DNA of 64,000 nt from positions 2,016,001-2,080,000 of the forward strand of contig OZ250173.1 of the NCBI GenBank assembly GCA_965238075.1, in the 5' to 3' direction. Shown in pieces: positions 48,353 to 64,000 of the stretch (its first letter is position 1; the number at the start of each line of letters is the position of its first letter). The translations under genes were made by a program, and so were the position numbers. Source of the stretch: Candidatus Entotheonellaceae bacterium (lineage in GTDB: Bacteria; Tectomicrobia; Entotheonellia; Entotheonellales; Entotheonellaceae). A model generated the notes under the pieces. That model did not search any database and had not been told where the DNA came from. It saw only the letters and a list, made by a program, of their open reading frames with translations.

Positions 48353-51073
48353 CTACCATCTCGTCCGGCGAGCCGCTGTTTCGAGGCGGCGATATGCTGG
48401 AACCTGAACAAGATGCGGCGCAACCTTACGCACCTGAGCAAGTGCATCTCCCAAGTCATAGGGAATGATCGCGTTTTCTGCCTTCTCGACCGTCCGATCA
48501 AGGAGGCGCAATAACGCATTGGCTTTGGCCTCGTCGTCAACTATTGCCAGTTTTGGCACGCCATTCTCGTTCCCATACAACTCATAATCGGACATTGACC
48601 AACAAGCAAACGGCTTGAGAAACCGGTCCACGGTGTCCACAGCTTCGGCGAAGCCACCGCCGGCGATTGCCGGGAGTTTCGCCAATGCATGACTGAGCCC
48701 CGGCGATGTCAGTGAGCGTTCTTGCGGCCAGACGTTTTGCAGGAAAGGCTTGGCCACTGACCGGAATAGTTCCTCCCGCGACGGCAGGTTCGGTTCCTGA
48801 TTGCTCGGTGATGATATCTCACTTACGAAGCGCGTGGTTGCTTCTGCACAGGACGTACGTACCTCTTCGTCGTCCAGTGACCGTATCATTTGCTGGATAC
48901 GGCTGTGCTCGATAGCCGGTTCTCGTTGTTCCCACAGAGCATGAAGGGATTCAACGACCAAGCTGAATGCCAATGAACAACGAGCATCACGATCAAGCTG
49001 GCGGTCCTTGGTCCGCGCTGCCATGTCATCACCAATAATTCCCAGTACGTCCTTGAATTGCGTGCGACAACTGACAGCACGCCAAAGGGCCAGTGCATCC
49101 TCGTTATTCGCACGAAGCGGGCGAATAAGGTGCTCTTGGGTCCATTCTTTGTCAGTGTGTAGGAAGTATCCCAGAAGCTCGATCAGCCGATGCTTGGCAA
49201 TCAATCCAGATCGACCCGAAGCGTTGATGACATGATCTCTCACCATTCGTAAATCGCTGGGATTATCAAATGGCCGAGGATTCTGGGTTAAGTCTGGGCG
49301 GGCAGCCAGGAACACACCAACGAGCTTCCCCGCGGGTGGGTTCAGGGTATCCAGGTCTTGAGGCTCGTCGGCATTGGGCCACACGTTAACATTAAGGTTA
49401 GGTTCTTCATTCGGTGGCTGCCTTGCATTCGTCGTCTCGACAGCCGATGGCCAAGCGCGGAGCCAGACTACGGACCAATTTGGCTGGGCGACAACGTACT
49501 TTTGCCAAGAACTAAGCCAGTGGGTAATGCCTTCGATGGCTTTGGATAGAGTGTCACCGGACAACGTCTCAAGGAGATTAAGCATCCGACGGACGGCTTC
49601 CTTGCCAATTTCCCTTTCTTGATCCGCCGCAGGTGAATGTATCCAACCCAAGCATTCCCAGACCTGCGGGAACTCCGCTCCGCCATTGAGGCTTGATTCC
49701 ATGTCCTTCAAAACCTGCAGAGGGTTATCTTCTTCGCTCAGCCAAGCTCTTGCCCGGCTGGCTGGATCATCATCCAATCCGTGGGACGGGCGTGAGAGTG
49801 CTTGTTCCAACGCTCTCAGCCGATCAGTGCCCGCAAGGAAATCCAGGGAGCGGTCAGGATTTGGGAAGCTGTAACCCACTTTCGGGGCGTTCAAGAACCC
49901 CTCGTCGATTCGATCCATTTCAGCTAAATCGGAGAACCGGCCGATGTTTGATCCCAACCAGGTTTTGTCGCCCCGCGGGAGAGTAGCCCCGGCCACCTCA
50001 ATGCGTCTCAGCTCCCGGACAATCCAGTAGAGGCGAGCCTTCTCAATGTGGTGCACTTCGGCATTCTTAGGCCATGAGTTGCGAGACCGCCCCTTGCGTA
50101 TTCTTTTAGTAATGGCCTTTTGTGCGGCGTTGTCTAATTCGTAGAAACGTCGAGCACGCAGTTCGGCAATTTCCGGGTGGTGATAAACATCCCAGAAGGT
50201 TCCATGGTCTAATTGGAGAAGAAACTCACTTACCTCGGTGGCGGGCGCAATCCGGGAATCACGACAAATTGCCGCCCAGAGTCGCAGATGGATAGGAGAG
50301 ACCGTTTGTTTCCAGCGGCTGACAAAAGCAAGCGCAGCGGAAAAATCGACGTCAGCGAGACGTGAAACGACTGCATGAAGGAGCTTTACCGAGGGGGCAA
50401 TGCCTCGGCCAAATGCATCGGGTTCGTGCTTGTCTTCGTCGGACTTACACTCTGATGCGTAGTACACGCGGCGCAGTAAGAGATGCTCTCGTCCCCTCCA
50501 CCCGATGCGCCTTGCAATATCCAATCCGTGCGCAACCGCGGCATCCAACGCACTGGCCCAAGAAACGAGGAATTCCCCTTCGGTCAGTTGCTCCAAGCCC
50601 AGAAAGGTCGGATTGATCACTTTTCCACTTGTCAGGCTCGCACAAAACATATCGCGGAAGGTTTTGGGACTTTTGGGAAAATTCTGGTATTGGCGAGCGC
50701 GAGACAAGTAGGGTCCAACAACTAACCTTGGTGCGACGAGATCAACAATGACTGAAACAAGGCTGCCGGATCGGTCCCCGCAATGGAATCGTTCTCTGAT
50801 TGTCTTCTGATTCCAACTATCGTCCCTACCAATTGGCTCCTCCCAGCTTTCTTCAATTAAACGCCAAGCGGAACGCCACGGTTCCCTGAGATTTATTCCA
50901 TCCTCTCGATCAAGCCAGTTCAGGATTGCCTGTCGTTTGACGATTTCACTCGGACCGAGACCCACAGCCCATTCGATGGTTTCTTTGTCTTCGAGACGAC
51001 CCTTGAGAAACGCGACTGCACAACGCATTATCTCTTGGTCTCTTACACTCCAAGTCTGCGGAAAGGATCTCAT
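48353..51073 (-). CDS. Large (about 906 aa) Trp-rich protein resembling the non-catalytic region of Dsr1-type defence sirtuins
   Basis: ATG 51073 overlaps the TGA of the SIR2 gene (TGATG). Motifs LNPPAGKL, D.EWT..HL, PFLQNVWP..R. More AT-rich than the backbone. The family link is from memory and unverified. Confidence 0.6.
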   Translation of the reverse strand: MRSFPQTWSVRDQEIMRCAVAFLKGRLEDKETIEWAVGLGPSEIVKRQAILNWLDREDGINLREPWRSAWRLIEESWEEPIGRDDSWNQKTIRERFHCGDRSGSLVSVIVDLVAPRLVVGPYLSRARQYQNFPKSPKTFRDMFCASLTSGKVINPTFLGLEQLTEGEFLVSWASALDAAVAHGLDIARRIGWRGREHLLLRRVYYASECKSDEDKHEPDAFGRGIAPSVKLLHAVVSRLADVDFSAALAFVSRWKQTVSPIHLRLWAAICRDSRIAPATEVSEFLLQLDHGTFWDVYHHPEIAELRARRFYELDNAAQKAITKRIRKGRSRNSWPKNAEVHHIEKARLYWIVRELRRIEVAGATLPRGDKTWLGSNIGRFSDLAEMDRIDEGFLNAPKVGYSFPNPDRSLDFLAGTDRLRALEQALSRPSHGLDDDPASRARAWLSEEDNPLQVLKDMESSLNGGAEFPQVWECLGWIHSPAADQEREIGKEAVRRMLNLLETLSGDTLSKAIEGITHWLSSWQKYVVAQPNWSVVWLRAWPSAVETTNARQPPNEEPNLNVNVWPNADEPQDLDTLNPPAGKLVGVFLAARPDLTQNPRPFDNPSDLRMVRDHVINASGRSGLIAKHRLIELLGYFLHTDKEWTQEHLIRPLRANNEDALALWRAVSCRTQFKDVLGIIGDDMAARTKDRQLDRDARCSLAFSLVVESLHALWEQREPAIEHSRIQQMIRSLDDEEVRTSCAEATTRFVSEISSPSNQEPNLPSREELFRSVAKPFLQNVWPQERSLTSPGLSHALAKLPAIAGGGFAEAVDTVDRFLKPFACWSMSDYELYGNENGVPKLAIVDDEAKANALLRLLDRTVEKAENAIIPYDLGDALAQVRKVAPHLVQVPAYRRLETAARRTRW

Positions 51074-52269
51074 CAGCGAGCCCTTTGGCCTACCTGCGAC
51101 GACGCTTCCACGATAGCGTCGAGCCAACCCAGGTCCGCGTTGTGTTTGGAAACCAGAGATGACAAGCGAAGGCGTTCGCTTGGCTCGCTTCGACGGATGA
51201 TATGGTCGAATAAATCACGCTCTTCGTCGTTGGCCCCCGTCCTTCTTGCCCTTACGATATTCTTCATTTCTCGGTCGATACGGCTTCTCTTTCCATTGAT
51301 GGCCGAGAATTCAGCCCATTGGACCAGTGTACGTGTCAACTGAGAATGGTCATTACTTGGGCTTTCGTACCGTATCGGCGTGATGCCACGATCCCTCCAA
51401 TCCTCCAATGTTACGGGATCGTCCTCATCCATTCCCACGAATACGAATCGTTCCTTGAGGTCAGGAAAGCGGGCCACATCCGCAGCCACGGCGTTAAGCA
51501 GATATCTCATTGGTGGATCGTTTGCGCTGTAGCCTACAAAGACCAAGTTATACAGGCGGGTGGCGTCGTAGATCAGATCGGGAACGATTCGCCGGCGGAA
51601 ATAGTATTCGCCGAAGTCCTGATCGGAAATAATCAAATCGGCACTTCGCTTAGGATTTCGGTCCAAGGCGCCATGGATGTGCAGTACGCCTTTGAATTCT
51701 GGCCTGCGGGTTGGCCTAGGTATTCCCCCAAGTGCGTATGTCTCGACCGATTGCCTCATAGCCCGCGCGGCGCTTTCAAGGAGGAGATCGAAATTCGTCG
51801 TGATGATCGCCGATGCCCCACCGCGGTCGGCAAGGCGCATCAATGCTCGATGAATTGAAGCCGGTTTAGCCCCGGCACGGAGGATCGTTCCAATTTTCTC
51901 CCTAACCGGACTCCCTCCAGTGTTTCCTTCAACTCCCTGCTCAAGCCTCCGCTCAAGCATTCCCAAAACGACATCGTATTCGTCTTGTTGGAAACGCTTA
52001 ATCTCCGCTTTTTGTCCATCATTCAAGTTAGATAAGTCAGTGTTGTGTCCATTATGCGAAATAACGGAATACACTCCCAAATCCAGCGCTTCGTACACTT
52101 TTACGACGAGTTCACGGAAGTTGGGCAACCCTGCGGACATTGAAACGCCAGCGCCTGCGACGAAGAGAACCTCGCCTCGTGCATGGGCGAGGAGCAGACG
52201 CTCTGGAATCCGTGCGGCTGATTGCCCCAGCATAATAGCTCTGCTGTCGATGTCTGGAGGTTGGTTCAT
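51073..52269 (-). CDS. SIR2_2 family (defence-type NADase-like) protein
   Basis: IPERLL.AH..G.V.F.AGAGVS..AGLP.F, ITTNFD.LLE, HIHG, DFGEYY, FVGYSANDP. Confidence 0.88.
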   Translation of the reverse strand: MNQPPDIDSRAIMLGQSAARIPERLLLAHARGEVLFVAGAGVSMSAGLPNFRELVVKVYEALDLGVYSVISHNGHNTDLSNLNDGQKAEIKRFQQDEYDVVLGMLERRLEQGVEGNTGGSPVREKIGTILRAGAKPASIHRALMRLADRGGASAIITTNFDLLLESAARAMRQSVETYALGGIPRPTRRPEFKGVLHIHGALDRNPKRSADLIISDQDFGEYYFRRRIVPDLIYDATRLYNLVFVGYSANDPPMRYLLNAVAADVARFPDLKERFVFVGMDEDDPVTLEDWRDRGITPIRYESPSNDHSQLTRTLVQWAEFSAINGKRSRIDREMKNIVRARRTGANDEERDLFDHIIRRSEPSERLRLSSLVSKHNADLGWLDAIVEASSQVGQRAR

Positions 52270-59750: not shown

Positions 59751-60632
59751 ATGACGACCCTAGAGGATGTCATTCTGGCGCAGGACAGGCGGGGCGTTGC
59801 AGCCCTGCGTCCGTATCTTCCGACCGGCTTCTGTGAGGCGGCGGCGCGGTTTCTGCTGGCGCACACGGGAACGGTGCTGATTGCCACCGGCTTCTACGTG
59901 CAACGCGCCGACGCACCCGAAACCGATGGCCCACCGGGGGCGCTGGCTCTGGGGCGGGCCTTGGAAGCCTTGGGCAACCGGGTGGCGTACGTCAGCGACG
60001 CTTACACCGCACCTCTGCTGGCCGATTTGGCCCCCGACGACACGGAAACGGTGGATTTCCCCATCGCCGATGACGCCACGAGCCGTGAGGCTGCCCGCGA
60101 CCTGCTCGACCGCATTGCACCCACCGTTTTGATCGCCATCGAACGCTGCGGTCTCACCCGCAGCGGAACCTACCTGAACATGCGCGGCCAGGACATCTCC
60201 CCGCACACCGCCCGACTCGACCACCTTTTTCGGCAACATCCGCACAGCGTCGGCATCGGCGACGGCGGCAATGAAATCGGCATGGGAAACCTGGCAAGTC
60301 ACATTCCCGAGGTGGCCACCCTGCCTGACGAACCCACAGTCACCTGCGCGACCCACCTGGTCATCGCCAGCGTCGCCAACTGGGGGGCGTATGGCGTGGT
60401 GGCCGCGTTATCTCGCCTGGCAGGCCGCAATCTGCTGCCGCAGCCTGCCGACGAGTCGGCCTGCATCCGTCGATTGGTCTCATTGGGGGCGGTGGACGGC
60501 GTGACCGGCGTCGCCGACTGCACGGTGGACAGTTTCACCCTGTCCGAAAATACGGATGTTCTTGAGCGCCTTAACGGCATGTTGGAGGCGGAGGGGATAT
60601 GTCGGGAAGGGGAAGCGGGCCAGGGGCTGTAG
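59751..60632 (+). CDS. DUF4392 / D-glutamate-cyclase-like protein
   Basis: ETDGPPGA, IER.G, GIGDGGNEIGMG, SVANWG. Confidence 0.85.
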   Translation: MTTLEDVILAQDRRGVAALRPYLPTGFCEAAARFLLAHTGTVLIATGFYVQRADAPETDGPPGALALGRALEALGNRVAYVSDAYTAPLLADLAPDDTETVDFPIADDATSREAARDLLDRIAPTVLIAIERCGLTRSGTYLNMRGQDISPHTARLDHLFRQHPHSVGIGDGGNEIGMGNLASHIPEVATLPDEPTVTCATHLVIASVANWGAYGVVAALSRLAGRNLLPQPADESACIRRLVSLGAVDGVTGVADCTVDSFTLSENTDVLERLNGMLEAEGICREGEAGQGL

Positions 60633-60738
60633 CGGGGGGTAACTCTGGTTCTTTACTTTGTGAAGCATTGCTCGGCGTCCGGCGGATCAAGTCAGGTGGT
60701 CAAAGCAACCAGCGCATCCCAAGCAGACACGGCGTCTA

Positions 60739-60766
60739 ACTTCGGATAAGGGCGGTTATGTCGCTT
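60739..60766 (+). other. Xer/dif-like recombination site 1
   Basis: ACTTCGGATAA-GGGCGG-TTATGTCGCTT (11-6-11 layout). Confidence 0.6.
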
Positions 60767-61235
60767 TTGGCATACTTCCTGGGTATGCTGGAAGGGTGGC
60801 CTAAGCTGCTACTCTCTCGATTTCATATGTGGATAACGATCGTTGGGTGAAAAAAATCTTTGGTGGTGGATCAGGGTATTGGGCAATCAATTTGCGGACC
60901 TGTGACTTTATCTTGCTCTGTTTGGGGCAACGAAACCCGATCAATATCTCACGGAGTTCGCATTGCTCAAGTTCAGCAAAATACAGTTTTCCATCTAAAT
61001 TTTCCTTTCGAGACCATGCGCGCCATTCTTCTTCGTATTCCCAGTTATATGATTTAGTATGCATAAGGTCGAGAAGTTGATTACGAGCCTTTTTAAATGA
61101 ATTATTATTGAATCTTTCTATAAAACGTCTTGACTCTACATCATTTCTTAACAGTCTAATCAGATCAGTAAAATTTTCCATAGTAAATCTTTTTTGTTGG
61201 TATGAAACTTTCCTAAACTTATCTGTTCTAGTGAA

Positions 61236-62516
61236 GGGCGCCTCGAAAAATGACTCACTGGCGGGCAAAACTGGCGTGAGTGACTTTGCCGCGCCATGGC
61301 GACAGAGAATAAACGGCGGTTTGCGTGGTGATGTCGCTCCTCAACAGGAGCCATGGCGCCTTCAAAGAGGGCATCCGGCACCCCCCTGCGCCCTTTAGCG
61401 TGAATCCACCATCGCCAGACGTTGCAAGTGAACCAGGCGCCGCATGTTGTAGGCAAGGTTCTTAAGACCTATGCGCGCCCTCGCCCGTACAAGCCCCATG
61501 CTGCGAACCAGAGTCCCGCCCATGTCGTTGTGCTGCGCGCCGAAGACATGCTCTATCCGAGCCCGAAATCGGGAACGACTCTGGTTGCCCGCTTTCTCCC
61601 AATCGCGCAACGGGCGGTTGCGAGAAGCCTTGCGATGAATCCGACTCGTCAAGCCCCTGGCTTTCACCTTCGCTTCAGTGTCTTTCGACCGGTAGGCGCT
61701 GTCCGCCCAGACACCGCTTGCCGTGTTGTCCGACGCCAACAACTCCTCAAGCACTTGGCTGTCATGCACCGCTGCGTCCGTCACCCGGTAACGCCGTATC
61801 AGCTTGTGCCGACGGTCGATGTTGACGTGATTCTTGTAGCCATAGTGGCTCTTGCCGTGCTTCTTGGTCCAGCGCGCATCCCTGTCTTTTTGCCGACGCT
61901 TGGCCGGCTTGTCGGCCCAGGCCTCGGGTAGCTCACCGCGCTTGATCTGCTCATTGTCGTCACGACGATTGCGCTGGATGGGAACCGCGACAATCGAAGC
62001 ATCTATGATCTGACCACCCATTGCCTGGTAGCCCTGGTTTTTCAGGTAGCCGTCGAAATCCTCAAACAAGGCATCGATGAGGCCAGCCTGTGACAACTGC
62101 TCGCGGTAGAGCCACACGGTTTTGGCGTCCGGCACCTTGTCTTCAAGTGCCAGTCCCAAGAAGCGCACGAAGGACAGGCGGTCGTGATACTCGACTTGAT
62201 CATCCGACAGATTGTAGAGGGCGCACAAAATGATGGCTTTGAACATGACGATGGCATCCCACGGCTTGCACCCCGAATTGGACTTGCGCTTGTCGGCTGG
62301 CTTGCGCCAGACGTTCTCCAGGCGGCTGCGGAATGCTTCCCAAGGAACGACGGCATTGATTTTCACCAAGGGATCGTTCTTGGCATCCAGAGCGGCGTAG
62401 CGATTCTCGACATCGAAAAAGCCCATCTGAGACATGTTCAACTCCTCCGGCCTTGCTGGTTGACGTGTTTCAGTAATTCTAAACCATGTGGGAGATGGGT
62501 ATTATTAGAGATGCCC
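61236..62516 (-). mobile_element. IS5-family insertion sequence, 1281 bp
   Basis: Imperfect IRs GGGCGCCTCGAAAAAT / GGGCATCTCTAATAAT (12/16); 4-bp TGAA duplication at 61232-61235 and 62517-62520. Confidence 0.92.
61395..62435 (-). CDS. IS5-family DDE transposase
   Basis: DRLSF.RFLGL, IIDASIV, SHYGYK.H, WADSAY, RARIEHVF, NLAYN. Confidence 0.93.
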   Translation of the reverse strand: MSQMGFFDVENRYAALDAKNDPLVKINAVVPWEAFRSRLENVWRKPADKRKSNSGCKPWDAIVMFKAIILCALYNLSDDQVEYHDRLSFVRFLGLALEDKVPDAKTVWLYREQLSQAGLIDALFEDFDGYLKNQGYQAMGGQIIDASIVAVPIQRNRRDDNEQIKRGELPEAWADKPAKRRQKDRDARWTKKHGKSHYGYKNHVNIDRRHKLIRRYRVTDAAVHDSQVLEELLASDNTASGVWADSAYRSKDTEAKVKARGLTSRIHRKASRNRPLRDWEKAGNQSRSRFRARIEHVFGAQHNDMGGTLVRSMGLVRARARIGLKNLAYNMRRLVHLQRLAMVDSR

Positions 62517-62847
62517 TGAATTCATAACCGAGACACATGCCCATAAATTTGTCAGCATAATGTCCCCATAATGCAGGATTTTTATATGTCTCGCTAAAAC
62601 AGATCACGCCATAATCTGTCGCTAGACCCTTCTGGAATTTTAACACTCCCTTTTCAAACTCGCGATCGGGGAAGGCGATTGCTAAGAATTCGTAGGGATC
62701 GTTTGTCTTGTCCAGGTCGGAAATTTTCAGTCGGCTCCTTTCTATAGCCTGCAAGGCATGCTCTGTGCGCAGAAAATGATATAACCATTGTGTCTTCGGC
62801 ATCTACGTTCCTTCCCCTCCCGTGGAAATTTACGACTGGCCCTCCCA

Positions 62848-62876
62848 ACTTCCGATAAGACTATTATATGTAAACT
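62848..62876 (+). other. Xer/dif-like recombination site 2
   Basis: ACTTCCGATAA-GACTATT-ATATGTAAACT, one base longer than the canonical 28 bp. Confidence 0.65.
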
Positions 62877-63174
62877 TTCGCATGCGCTGAAACTCGTATA
62901 GATGCTGGCTTTGCGCGTTTCGGCGGATGCGCCGAGGCGACTTCCCCACCGGAAAGGGCGATTTTGGCCGTTTCCGGTGAAAGCGGTGGGGCGGCCATGA
63001 ACCTGAAGGGCTTTCCTGCACCCCTCAGTGGGGTATTCGTGGGAGTTTCGCGGCGTCGCGCTTCAAGACCGGACGCGGGTCGCAGACCCCAGCAGCAGCC
63101 CGGAAACGGCAGGGATTTCCCACTCCAGGGGTACAACGCCGCCGTCACGACAAGTAAGCGCACAGAGATGCCGC

Positions 63175-64000
63175 TCACGCCCAGGGCAGGAACACGGTGG
63201 CGCCTGTGGTCTCTCGCGCTTCGAGCGCCCGGTGTGCCTCGGCGGCCTCCGCGAGCGGATAGACGTGGTTCACGGCGGGCCGCACGACCCCCTGCGCGAG
63301 AACCTCGAATAGTTCTTCCCCGCTGCGCTCCAGGGCGTCGCGCGTCCCGAGGTAGTGCATGATCGCGGGACGGGTGAGAAAGAGCGATCCGCGCGCGCCG
63401 AGCTCGATGACGTCGACGGGATCGGGCGGGCCGGAGGCGTGGCCGTAGCTCGCCATCATGCCGAGCGGGCGCAGGCAATCGAGTGACCGGCGGAACGTGT
63501 CCTTGCCGATTGATTCGTAGACGACGGCGCAGCCTTCGCCGTTCGTCACTTCGCGGACGGTGGCGACGAAATCCCCCGCGCTGTGGATGACGACATGCTC
63601 CGCACCCGACGCACGCGCCTCCTCTGCTTTCGCCGCCGAGCTTACGGTGCCGATGACGGTCGCCCCGAGATGCCTCGCCCACTGGCAGAGGAGCAGACCC
63701 GTGGCACCCGCCGCGGCGTGGACGAGCACGACGTCGCCCCGCTCTACGCGGTACGTCCGCCGCACGAGGTATTGCACGGTCAGGCCCTTGAGCATCGAGG
63801 CGGCGAGGATGCGGTCGTCGAGATGGTCGAGGGAAGCCGGCACCTTGAGGAGATTCGCGGCGGGGTAGTTGCGTACTTGGCTGTAGGCCCCGTGGGGCGG
63901 TAGGGCATAGGCGACCCGGTCTCCCACCGCAAACCCGGTGACACCGGTTCCGGCTTCCTCGACGCGGCCGGCGCCTTCGAAGCCGAGCACGACCGGCAGC
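63175..64000 (-). CDS. qor: NADPH:quinone oxidoreductase (zeta-crystallin-like), 5'-truncated
   Basis: G.EGAG.V, LKGLT..YL, HAAAGATG, GHASG, SLFLTRP, EAH..LE.R.TTG. Confidence 0.9.
   Translation of the reverse strand, partial: LPVVLGFEGAGRVEEAGTGVTGFAVGDRVAYALPPHGAYSQVRNYPAANLLKVPASLDHLDDRILAASMLKGLTVQYLVRRTYRVERGDVVLVHAAAGATGLLLCQWARHLGATVIGTVSSAAKAEEARASGAEHVVIHSAGDFVATVREVTNGEGCAVVYESIGKDTFRRSLDCLRPLGMMASYGHASGPPDPVDVIELGARGSLFLTRPAIMHYLGTRDALERSGEELFEVLAQGVVRPAVNHVYPLAEAAEAHRALEARETTGATVFLPWA

Follow-up and report, generated by a model that had tools for sequence, protein, structure and literature searches.

Near the right end of a 64,000-nucleotide stretch of the chromosome of a Candidatus Entotheonellaceae bacterium (GenBank assembly GCA_965238075.1, contig OZ250173.1; hereafter the window), an AT-rich gene of the DUF2971 family lies between two short dif-like sites, which raises the question of whether the host Xer recombinases brought the gene there and whether it can still move. 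On the prevailing view, Xer recombination requires matching spacers and activation by FtsK or by a protein that the element itself encodes, and several dif sites per chromosome should be dangerous. We found that the DUF2971 cassette belongs to a system of arrays spread over the genome, in which a dedicated platform stands at the array end; the initial annotation of the window had missed this. A cassette of this system is made up of a spacer, an XerD-type arm, the cargo and an XerC-type arm, and co-oriented arrays mostly end on the XerD side in the platform. The source genome, G000, is a single contig of 3.35 Mb with a G+C content (GC) of 62%, and the window is G000:2,016,001-2,080,000. G001 to G005 denote its relatives in the genus, L-numbers extracted regions and X-numbers public metagenome runs.

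Site 1 (60739-60766) has an 11-6-11 layout with the spacer GGGCGG and site 2 (62848-62876) an 11-7-11 layout with the spacer GACTATT. Both have the same orientation, in agreement with the initial annotation, which had quoted these positions and spacers for two co-oriented sites flanking an AT-rich gene. Relative to the two 11-base arms of the G000 dif, site 1 is identical at 10 + 7 bases (17/22) and site 2 at 10 + 10 (20/22). They are the sole such matches in the window, against a mean of 0.02 in locally shuffled windows, none of which (0/200) held two, and scoring with a dif profile, a check proposed at the outset, placed both far above background. Generic repeat finding did not pick them up. 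The true dif was located at 3,139,063 on the minus strand, 1.06 Mb from the cassette locus. Its sequence is identical in 6/6 genomes of the genus, at about 20 kb from xerD in each, and the strand switch of octamers that we take to be KOPS-like (FtsK-orienting polar sequences) coincides with it. The GC skew of G000 was too flat for placing the terminus, which was placed by dif conservation and KOPS polarity instead. No second dif-like site was found in the 18 kb around the true dif (9 kb on each side).

Comparison of the locus with its relatives, a further check proposed at the outset, showed that homology breaks in the sites and that the cargo between the flanks differs. In G001, the spacer and XerD arm of site 2 are kept along with 550 bp beyond (92%), and three other cassettes stand in place of the DUF2971 cassette. 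The left flank is kept in G002 through the XerC arm of site 1 and is followed by different cargo, G004 has no site at this locus and G005 a platform remnant. The same pattern of kept flanks and swapped cargo was found at a second locus (3.29-3.30 Mb) in four relatives. A single C-side flank is followed by any of four spacers, each with a different cassette, and a 0.2-kb mini-cassette recurs behind several different flanks. In site pairs with only the C-side flank in common, the variable C-arm bases are kept at 0.89 and 1.0, against 0.56 and 0.58 at random. The spacer is kept in 0/19 of the pairs sharing the C-side flank only and in 4/68 of those sharing the D-side flank only, pairs that are not independent of one another, and 0/69 cassettes have identical flanking spacers. 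Exchange therefore takes place inside the spacer, without conserved overlap homology. The idea of a spacer that invariably moves together with the XerD side was borne out by the DUF2971 cassette but not across all site pairs, and was rejected.

These breakpoints bear on the idea that the extra sites serve chromosome housekeeping, namely XerD loading or the unloading of SMC (structural maintenance of chromosomes) complexes, with foreign genes merely collecting alongside. In Bacillus and Staphylococcus, SMC is reported to be unloaded at extra XerD-binding sites (cited in bioRxiv 2021.09.09.459576). However, the sites described here have full XerC-type arms, their positions are not conserved between sister species, they are absent in G004 and they coincide with homology breakpoints. 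The breakpoints inside spacers largely refute the housekeeping idea, which we find hardly credible.

The public runs that hold the DNA of this locus are, where labelled, sponge metagenomes. X1 and X2 belong to one study and are possibly the source samples; the analysis covered their contigs. In both, a difference-free left-flank contig ends at 60752, after the third spacer base, and continues as two contigs, one with the DUF2971 cassette and one with another cassette. The alternative contig differs by three letters before 60762 and is unlike from there on; the start of its cassette was not found in the 5 genus genomes. Depths at the branch were 61.2 = 31.2 + 30 in X1 and 167, 112.7 and 38 in X2, contig depth being no measure of cell share, and the right side in X1 adds up less neatly (53.3 + 33.6). 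Site 1 has four continuations in X7 and at least two in X3. These contigs show that coexisting strains carry different cargo at one junction, though not that recombination is in progress. A joint between 60769 and 62845 was considered as an empty site and rejected, as it keeps both sites with DNA between them and most likely represents a paralogous cassette at 1.32 Mb.

It had been proposed that the cassette may be locked in, on the grounds that the spacers differ and that each site has a defect. Neither argument withstood the comparison. Unequal flanking spacers are the rule, and the supposed defects are ordinary features: the spacer has 7 nt at 24/45 platform sites, the XerD arm starts with ATAT at 19/26 strict-score platform sites, and a degenerate outer XerD arm is normal at cassette sites. 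As the sample contigs branch inside the site 1 spacer into different cassettes, the view of the site as defective and locked in is not supported.

With a profile derived from its own matches, G000 gave 28 sites, that is, dif and 27 extra sites at 13 loci (0-1 in shuffled sequence), and a non-circular scan with dif alone gave 26 (shuffles 0-2). Matches to one pattern numbered 21, 32, 10, 39, 1 and 12 in G000 to G005; G009 had 6, and the 10 remaining genomes of the phylum had 1-2 each. The 147 sites scored lie in regions around most pattern matches, rather than in whole genomes. Adjacent site pairs are co-oriented in 74/79 cases over five genomes and in 14/14 in G000, where this holds for every cluster. 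The 69 inter-site units have bodies of 22-4,237 bp, with a mean GC of 0.54 for those above 300 bp. Spacers are of 7 nt at 51/146 sites, and the fifth base of the XerD arm, a G, is kept at 145/146, with the outer arm bases varying. A unit with the spacer CCTTGGC is inverted relative to its neighbours in G001 (L045:4582), where it accounts for two of the five inverted pairs, and relative to the orientation of the window locus in G005 (L024:12713). Anchoring of the arrays at tRNA genes was rejected, since besides dif only the 1.32-Mb array and a 374-kb site lie within 6 kb of a tRNA or tmRNA gene. G004, of the same genus and with intact Xer genes, has only dif and one partial platform and offers a natural negative control for a missing activator.

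Site 2 is followed by a conserved non-coding element of ~150 bp, the platform. It is present at 28/38 last sites and 16/39 single sites but at only 1/69 first or inner sites. A sequence-only model trained on 41 copies gave 14, 19, 12, 17, 1 and 11 matches in G000 to G005. Beyond these, G010 had one weak match, and the 14 further genomes searched had none. Outside the training set, 12/20 near-full-length matches have a whole site 31-53 nt upstream, the others having a truncated, decayed or displaced site, and five partial matches have no site. The sites next to platforms are also closer to dif, with 0.6 mismatches in the five outer XerD-arm bases compared with 2.1 at inner sites, and with both arms within ~1.5 mismatches of the host dif. 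The distance from core to platform takes three values (24-26, 35-36 and 46 nt) and insertions or deletions between the boxes measure 11-12 nt; these steps indicate helical phasing. An RNA structure was rejected, as there was no Rfam match in 60600-63200 and the consensus had 5 pairs with a covariation of 0.05. The DNA fold of site 2 with the platform was not significant (z -0.62), and a scan of 60600-63200 for sigma-70-like promoters, other promoter types being outside it, found none. A small gene coding for a hydrophobic N-terminal stretch and a coiled-coil-like repeat points to the platform in 13/42 platform flanks (L008:8325-8627, L013:4171-4524, L013:13694-13915 and relatives); we do not propose it as the activator, because homologues also occur away from sites. 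An 8-kb contig labelled Dehalococcoidia (L083), which may be misbinned, carries a site with a platform (67.8 bits).

Which enzyme acts on these sites? XerC and XerD of G000 are intact and above their family cut-offs, as is FtsK-gamma intact, and G000 has no other intact tyrosine recombinase; none of the cassette open reading frames (ORFs) scanned codes for a recombinase. We consider it fairly probable that the arrays form an integron-like cassette system whose dif-mimicking junctions are processed by the host XerC/XerD, with the proposed insertion and activation at the platform, a reading in which we infer the enzyme, the activator, the circles and the direction of insertion alike.

That reading has to be weighed against one in which the platform is the arm region (att site) of a family of integrative elements with a dif-like core, whose own tyrosine integrase would be supplied in trans by a helper element missing, or since lost, from these genomes, XerC and XerD being bystanders or half of the pair. 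The phased direct and inverted boxes beside the core resemble the arm sites of integrases together with sites for bending proteins. The Tn916 and CTnDOT integrases typically tolerate unmatched overlaps, which counts in favour of this alternative, as does a short 199-aa recombinase gene near sites in G001, broken in G000. Moreover, a hybrid dif-like site served by an element's XerC-like protein and the host XerD is known (PMC11014353). Yet the platform sites keep both arms close to the host dif, a comparison of 42 platform flanks showed, among the matches listed, no recurrent recombinase gene downstream, and only XerC and XerD are intact in G000 even though populations vary at the window junction. 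A phage vehicle was not found either: the platform pattern had no match in viral sequences, and 80 viral loci with a site, of at least 120 matched, included none with two sites or a platform. An integrase acting in trans is therefore, in our judgment, an unlikely explanation.

If the host XerC/XerD do act on the arrays, cassettes would be excised as one-site circles and inserted mainly at the platform. There, a protein bound to the phased element, bending the DNA or activating the enzymes, would stand in for FtsK at a distance from the terminus, in much the manner of the accessory DNA at cer/psi. Three HU/IHF-family proteins are candidates for this binder. Unmatched spacers would be accepted in strand exchange, with replication or repair resolving the mismatched overlap; this would account for the scrambled spacers. 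At inner sites, excision would be kept infrequent by the degenerate outer half of the XerD arm. For Vibrio, the G at the fifth position of the XerD arm is reported as the base that counts most in Xer recombination, and outer-arm degeneracy as preventing excision (bioRxiv 2021.09.09.459576). Twelve of 101 non-platform spacers equal a platform spacer, against 0.38 after letter shuffling, which fits platform spacers left behind at insertion.

Several observations weigh against host-Xer exchange at a platform. The fit of the shared spacers is weakened because the shuffle null ignores shared ancestry. Flanking spacers have no homology above chance at either end (first base 29/69, 0.43 expected). 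No activator was found, and G000 has no match to DUF3653, presumably the XafT-type family of Xer activators. Known XerCD reactions on pdif sites would not accept unmatched spacers (PMC13141974). Neither an excised circle nor an empty junction was seen among the joints listed, in contigs only. The strain differences could stem from homologous recombination of whole blocks, and the branch in X1 and X2 does not show the insertion point, because site 1 is farthest from the platform. The platform is missing at 10/38 last and 23/39 single sites, G004 has dif alone although its Xer genes are the same, and homologues of two cargo genes lie at three loci of relatives without sites. While 3/4 clear DUF2971 paralogues in G000 and 2/2 in G003 lie between dif-like sites, the fourth in G000 (L351:1400-2103, 2.187 Mb), frameshifted and beside a Sel1 gene and a toxin-antitoxin remnant, has no detectable sites.

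Exchange of whole blocks, by homologous recombination or horizontal transfer, is also part of a further explanation, by which the arrays are stacked relics of plasmid modules, fixed by spacer mismatch and resembling pdif modules or IMEXs (integrative mobile elements exploiting Xer). Serial IMEX integration leaves direct repeats (bioRxiv 2026.06.12.731946), some of the longer units have resolvase, ParA or toxin-antitoxin genes, and many cargo genes and sites are decayed or hit by insertion sequences (ISs); the lack of a circle among the joints listed would be expected as well. Such relics would leave the polar position of the platform unexplained, however, and they do not sit well with arrays at 13 loci far from dif, with a single C flank before four spacers and cassettes, with a mini-cassette behind several flanks, or with a branch inside the spacer next to a left flank free of differences. 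We regard the relic explanation as quite improbable and retain cassette exchange by the host XerC/XerD.

In layout, the arrays recall integrons, in which IntI acts on attI and attC and a fixed platform stands at one end of a polar row of cassettes. They share with them the fixed platform at one end, the polar row of mostly single genes, the defence-rich cargo and the presence of several arrays without an adjacent integrase; a single platform site at the end of a polar array (28/38 last sites, 1/69 first or inner sites) is found here as a matter of architecture only. Unlike integrons, they have 11-6/7-11 dif-like junctions instead of attC hairpins, and no intact IntI was found in G000, G001 or G003 (0/3 above the TIGR02249 cut-off); the sigma-70 scan gave no cassette promoter in the platform. 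A truncated and broken intI-like relic lies at G000:C1:872945-873309 (-), far from dif-like sites, with two small genes of lower GC divergently beside it. The cer and psi sites, whose accessory DNA lies on the XerC side and is bound by PepA with ArgR or ArcA, likewise combine an Xer core with accessory DNA. They have a longer central region and ~180 bp of accessory DNA that allows FtsK-independent recombination, and they resolve plasmid multimers between identical sites (PMC5357621). The ~150-bp element described here, in contrast, is chromosomal and multi-copy, accompanies one site per array and lies on the XerD side.

In their enzyme, the arrays come closer to the dif (pdif) modules of Acinetobacter, which are also recombinase-free single-gene modules between 28-bp host-Xer sites, set in rows, with toxin-antitoxin and unknown cargo and nearby ISs. 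Acinetobacter dif module islands include 22 chromosomal sites in one strain; C and D modules alternate, so that sites are inverted, spacers are of 6 bp, and identical or near-identical spacers are required (PMC13141974; PMC12907356). The present arrays have host-type arms but neither the inverted orientation nor the spacer rule: neighbours are direct (74/79), about one-third of the spacers have 7 nt, flanking spacers do not match (0/69) and an accessory platform stands at the array ends. IMEXs (the CTX, VGJ and TLC phages and the gonococcal genetic island, GGI) hijack XerCD without FtsK, and their serial insertion gives direct repeats (PMC5357621; bioRxiv 2021.09.09.459576; bioRxiv 2026.06.12.731946). 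They tolerate overlap mismatches (VGJ) and degenerate XerD arms (TLC, GGI) and keep the fifth XerD-arm G (PMC5357621; bioRxiv 2021.09.09.459576). Direct repeats, degenerate XerD arms and the kept G are found in our arrays too. However, IMEXs are phages or islands with replication or activator genes of their own that integrate at dif, whereas the cassettes described here measure 0.05-4 kb, have neither kind of gene and occupy 13 non-dif loci, the window locus among them. The DUF2971 cassette itself showed no self-replicating element, folded ssDNA attP or Xer activator gene, a distant activator being possible.

The cassette system is thus neither a pdif module nor an IMEX at dif: it resembles an integron in layout and a dif module or IMEX in its probable enzyme, but departs from each of them in a defining feature. 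The literature covered, mostly outside subscription journals, did not describe cassette arrays on direct dif-like sites that end in a platform, and reported no such sites from the phylum. A host-Xer-type, integron-like array system of one Tectimicrobiota genus is apparently undescribed.

The window cassette measures 853 bp with both sites and without its IS, close to the 0.85 kb first estimated. Its gene pieces have a GC of 0.37 and 0.44, against 0.66-0.70 in the flanks. An IS5 element, flanked by a TGAA duplication (61232-61235 and 62517-62520), splits the DUF2971 gene, which is inactivated by it in the present assembly. An intact twin of 238 aa was found in G003 (contig C53), in a four-site array between other cassettes, with 86-89% DNA identity. 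On the left, the two copies have the spacer GGGCGG and the XerD arm in common but not the DNA upstream, and on the right the XerC arm and one base. Run X7, from another study, holds an IS-free form in a single 880-nt contig with 7 and 20 nt of the locus flanks. At window position 62184, the IS5 copy of the window lacks 6 nt that are present in all overlapping X1 contigs and nearly all X2 ones, which reflects a copy-specific in-frame deletion or an assembly error. Elsewhere, one end of an IS5 lies right against the XerD arm at a platform site, with the XerC arm removed (L130:5790-6009, G001), and in G003 an IS5 directly follows DUF4392 (L020). The coordinates of the window features are given in Table 1.

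Table 1. Features of the DUF2971 cassette locus, in window positions.
Feature	Position	Strand	Evidence
DUF4392 (D-glutamate cyclase-like) gene, left chromosomal flank, conserved in genus	59751..60632	+	PF14336, E 7.5e-70; syntenic in 5/5 genus relatives
Cassette unit: spacer, XerD arm, gene, XerC arm	60750..62858	.	2,109 bp; 824 bp without IS; bounds from 821-bp twin
Site 1 XerC-type arm, part of left flank	60739..60749	+	10/11 identical to dif arm; G002 flank shared through arm, then other cargo
Site 1 spacer GGGCGG (6 nt) and XerD-type arm with degenerate outer half; cassette start	60750..60766	+	Same spacer and nearly same arm in G003 twin; contigs branch after 60752
3' part of DUF2971 / PADLOC PDC-S31 gene	60801..61235	-	
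IS5-family element, 1,281 bp, transposase 61395-62441	61236..62516	-	NF033581, 267.7 bits, cut-off 140; bounds from IS-free twin
5' part of DUF2971 gene; start 45 bp from site 2	62517..62802	-	
Site 2 XerC-type arm, final part of cassette	62848..62858	+	Twin homology stops after arm and first spacer base
Site 2 spacer GACTATT (7 nt) and dif-like XerD-type arm, part of platform	62859..62876	+	In G001, kept together with ~550 bp beyond it (92%), after unrelated cassettes
Platform accessory element; conserved boxes at 62889, 62944 (CCCCACC), 62985 (GGTGGGG) and 63027, variable DNA between	62889..63036	+	Model 77.8 bits (copy in training set)
Quinone oxidoreductase (qor) gene, right chromosomal flank, runs past window end	63175..64000	-	PF00107; in 5/5 relatives

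A defence role of the cassette gene is likely, because the intact twin matches PADLOC PDC-S31 (E 7.5e-26), its structure model resembles ADP-ribosyltransferases at modest Z scores and anti-phage activity has been validated for Aristaios, a DUF2971 gene of lactococcal origin (PMC11381338). The match to PF11185 is weak for the 3' piece in the window (E 0.0016) and clearer for the twin (E 4e-6, 28.5 bits, cut-off 22). The WxHYA and ExEWR columns are invariant, as is the ExE motif in 20 aligned DUF2971 homologues. The model of the twin (predicted local distance difference test score, pLDDT, 85) best matched Tpt1 (Z 7.3, root mean square deviation 2.9, 106 aligned), with four DarT entries at Z 5.7-6.4; the best Foldseek match was DarT, at a middling E of 0.16, consistent with an ADP-ribosyltransferase fold. 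A DarT-like character has been ascribed to the family (PMC12522546), and we predict that the intact protein is an NAD-using abortive-infection factor of this fold. Aristaios and PDC-S31 resemble the window gene as single DUF2971 genes with a predicted ADP-ribosyltransferase fold, a likeness by family and description; Aristaios has 316 aa compared with 238 aa for the twin, and the copy in the window is interrupted by IS5. Among distant DUF2971 homologues in metagenomes of other habitats (29-38% identity; best 80 of 560), no locus had a site. Overall, the initial view, in which a single gene of putative defence function forms a dif-like cassette probably mobilised by Xer, is supported. A SIR2_2-domain gene (51073-52269, -, E 1.8e-20), 8.5 kb to the left of the cassette with no dif-like site nearby, is another candidate defence gene in the window.

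Cargo matches over the arrays comprise Zorya II, two type IIG restriction-modification enzymes, ThsB, a TIR effector, NYN/HEC-09, FRG-TPR, TacAT, HigB, Sel1, ankyrin and P450, and 55/80 cassette ORFs have no Pfam match. A complete Zorya II operon forms one 3.1-kb cassette in G001 (L038:3449-6467). ORF-less mini-cassettes of 51-81 bp (L031:10428-10509, L026:4393-4472, L030:99-150, L069:5199-5256), several with a hairpin and an A-run that look terminator-like on the other strand, may insulate or silence their neighbours. A split gene for a group II intron reverse transcriptase lies inside an array (L003:6651-8252, G000 446.6-448.3 kb), where the XerC arm of the adjacent site is replaced. Co-oriented arrays of 2-5 similar sites, with the platform absent, occur in other phyla, at 3 loci of Ca. 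Versatilivorator (L077, L085, L101) and 2 loci of Planococcus (L086, L095).

The presence of 10-40 extra sites far from the terminus, exchanged without spacer identity, points to a new way of activating and directing XerCD, for which a site with its 150-bp element makes a short, testable substrate. The arrays, all of which integron finders would overlook, also flag cargo for discovery: known defence systems are accompanied by many single-gene cassettes that lack annotation. Direct arrays of a similar kind in Acidobacteriota and Planococcus hint at a wide occurrence of the principle. We tentatively propose, as a possibility rather short of an even chance, that these arrays represent a second, independently evolved kind of integron, in which a recombinase-free platform recruits XerCD anywhere on the chromosome through its phased element and joins cassettes without overlap homology. 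If this is true, sponge symbionts would shuffle defence genes and genes with eukaryote-like repeats fast enough for strains within one host to differ.

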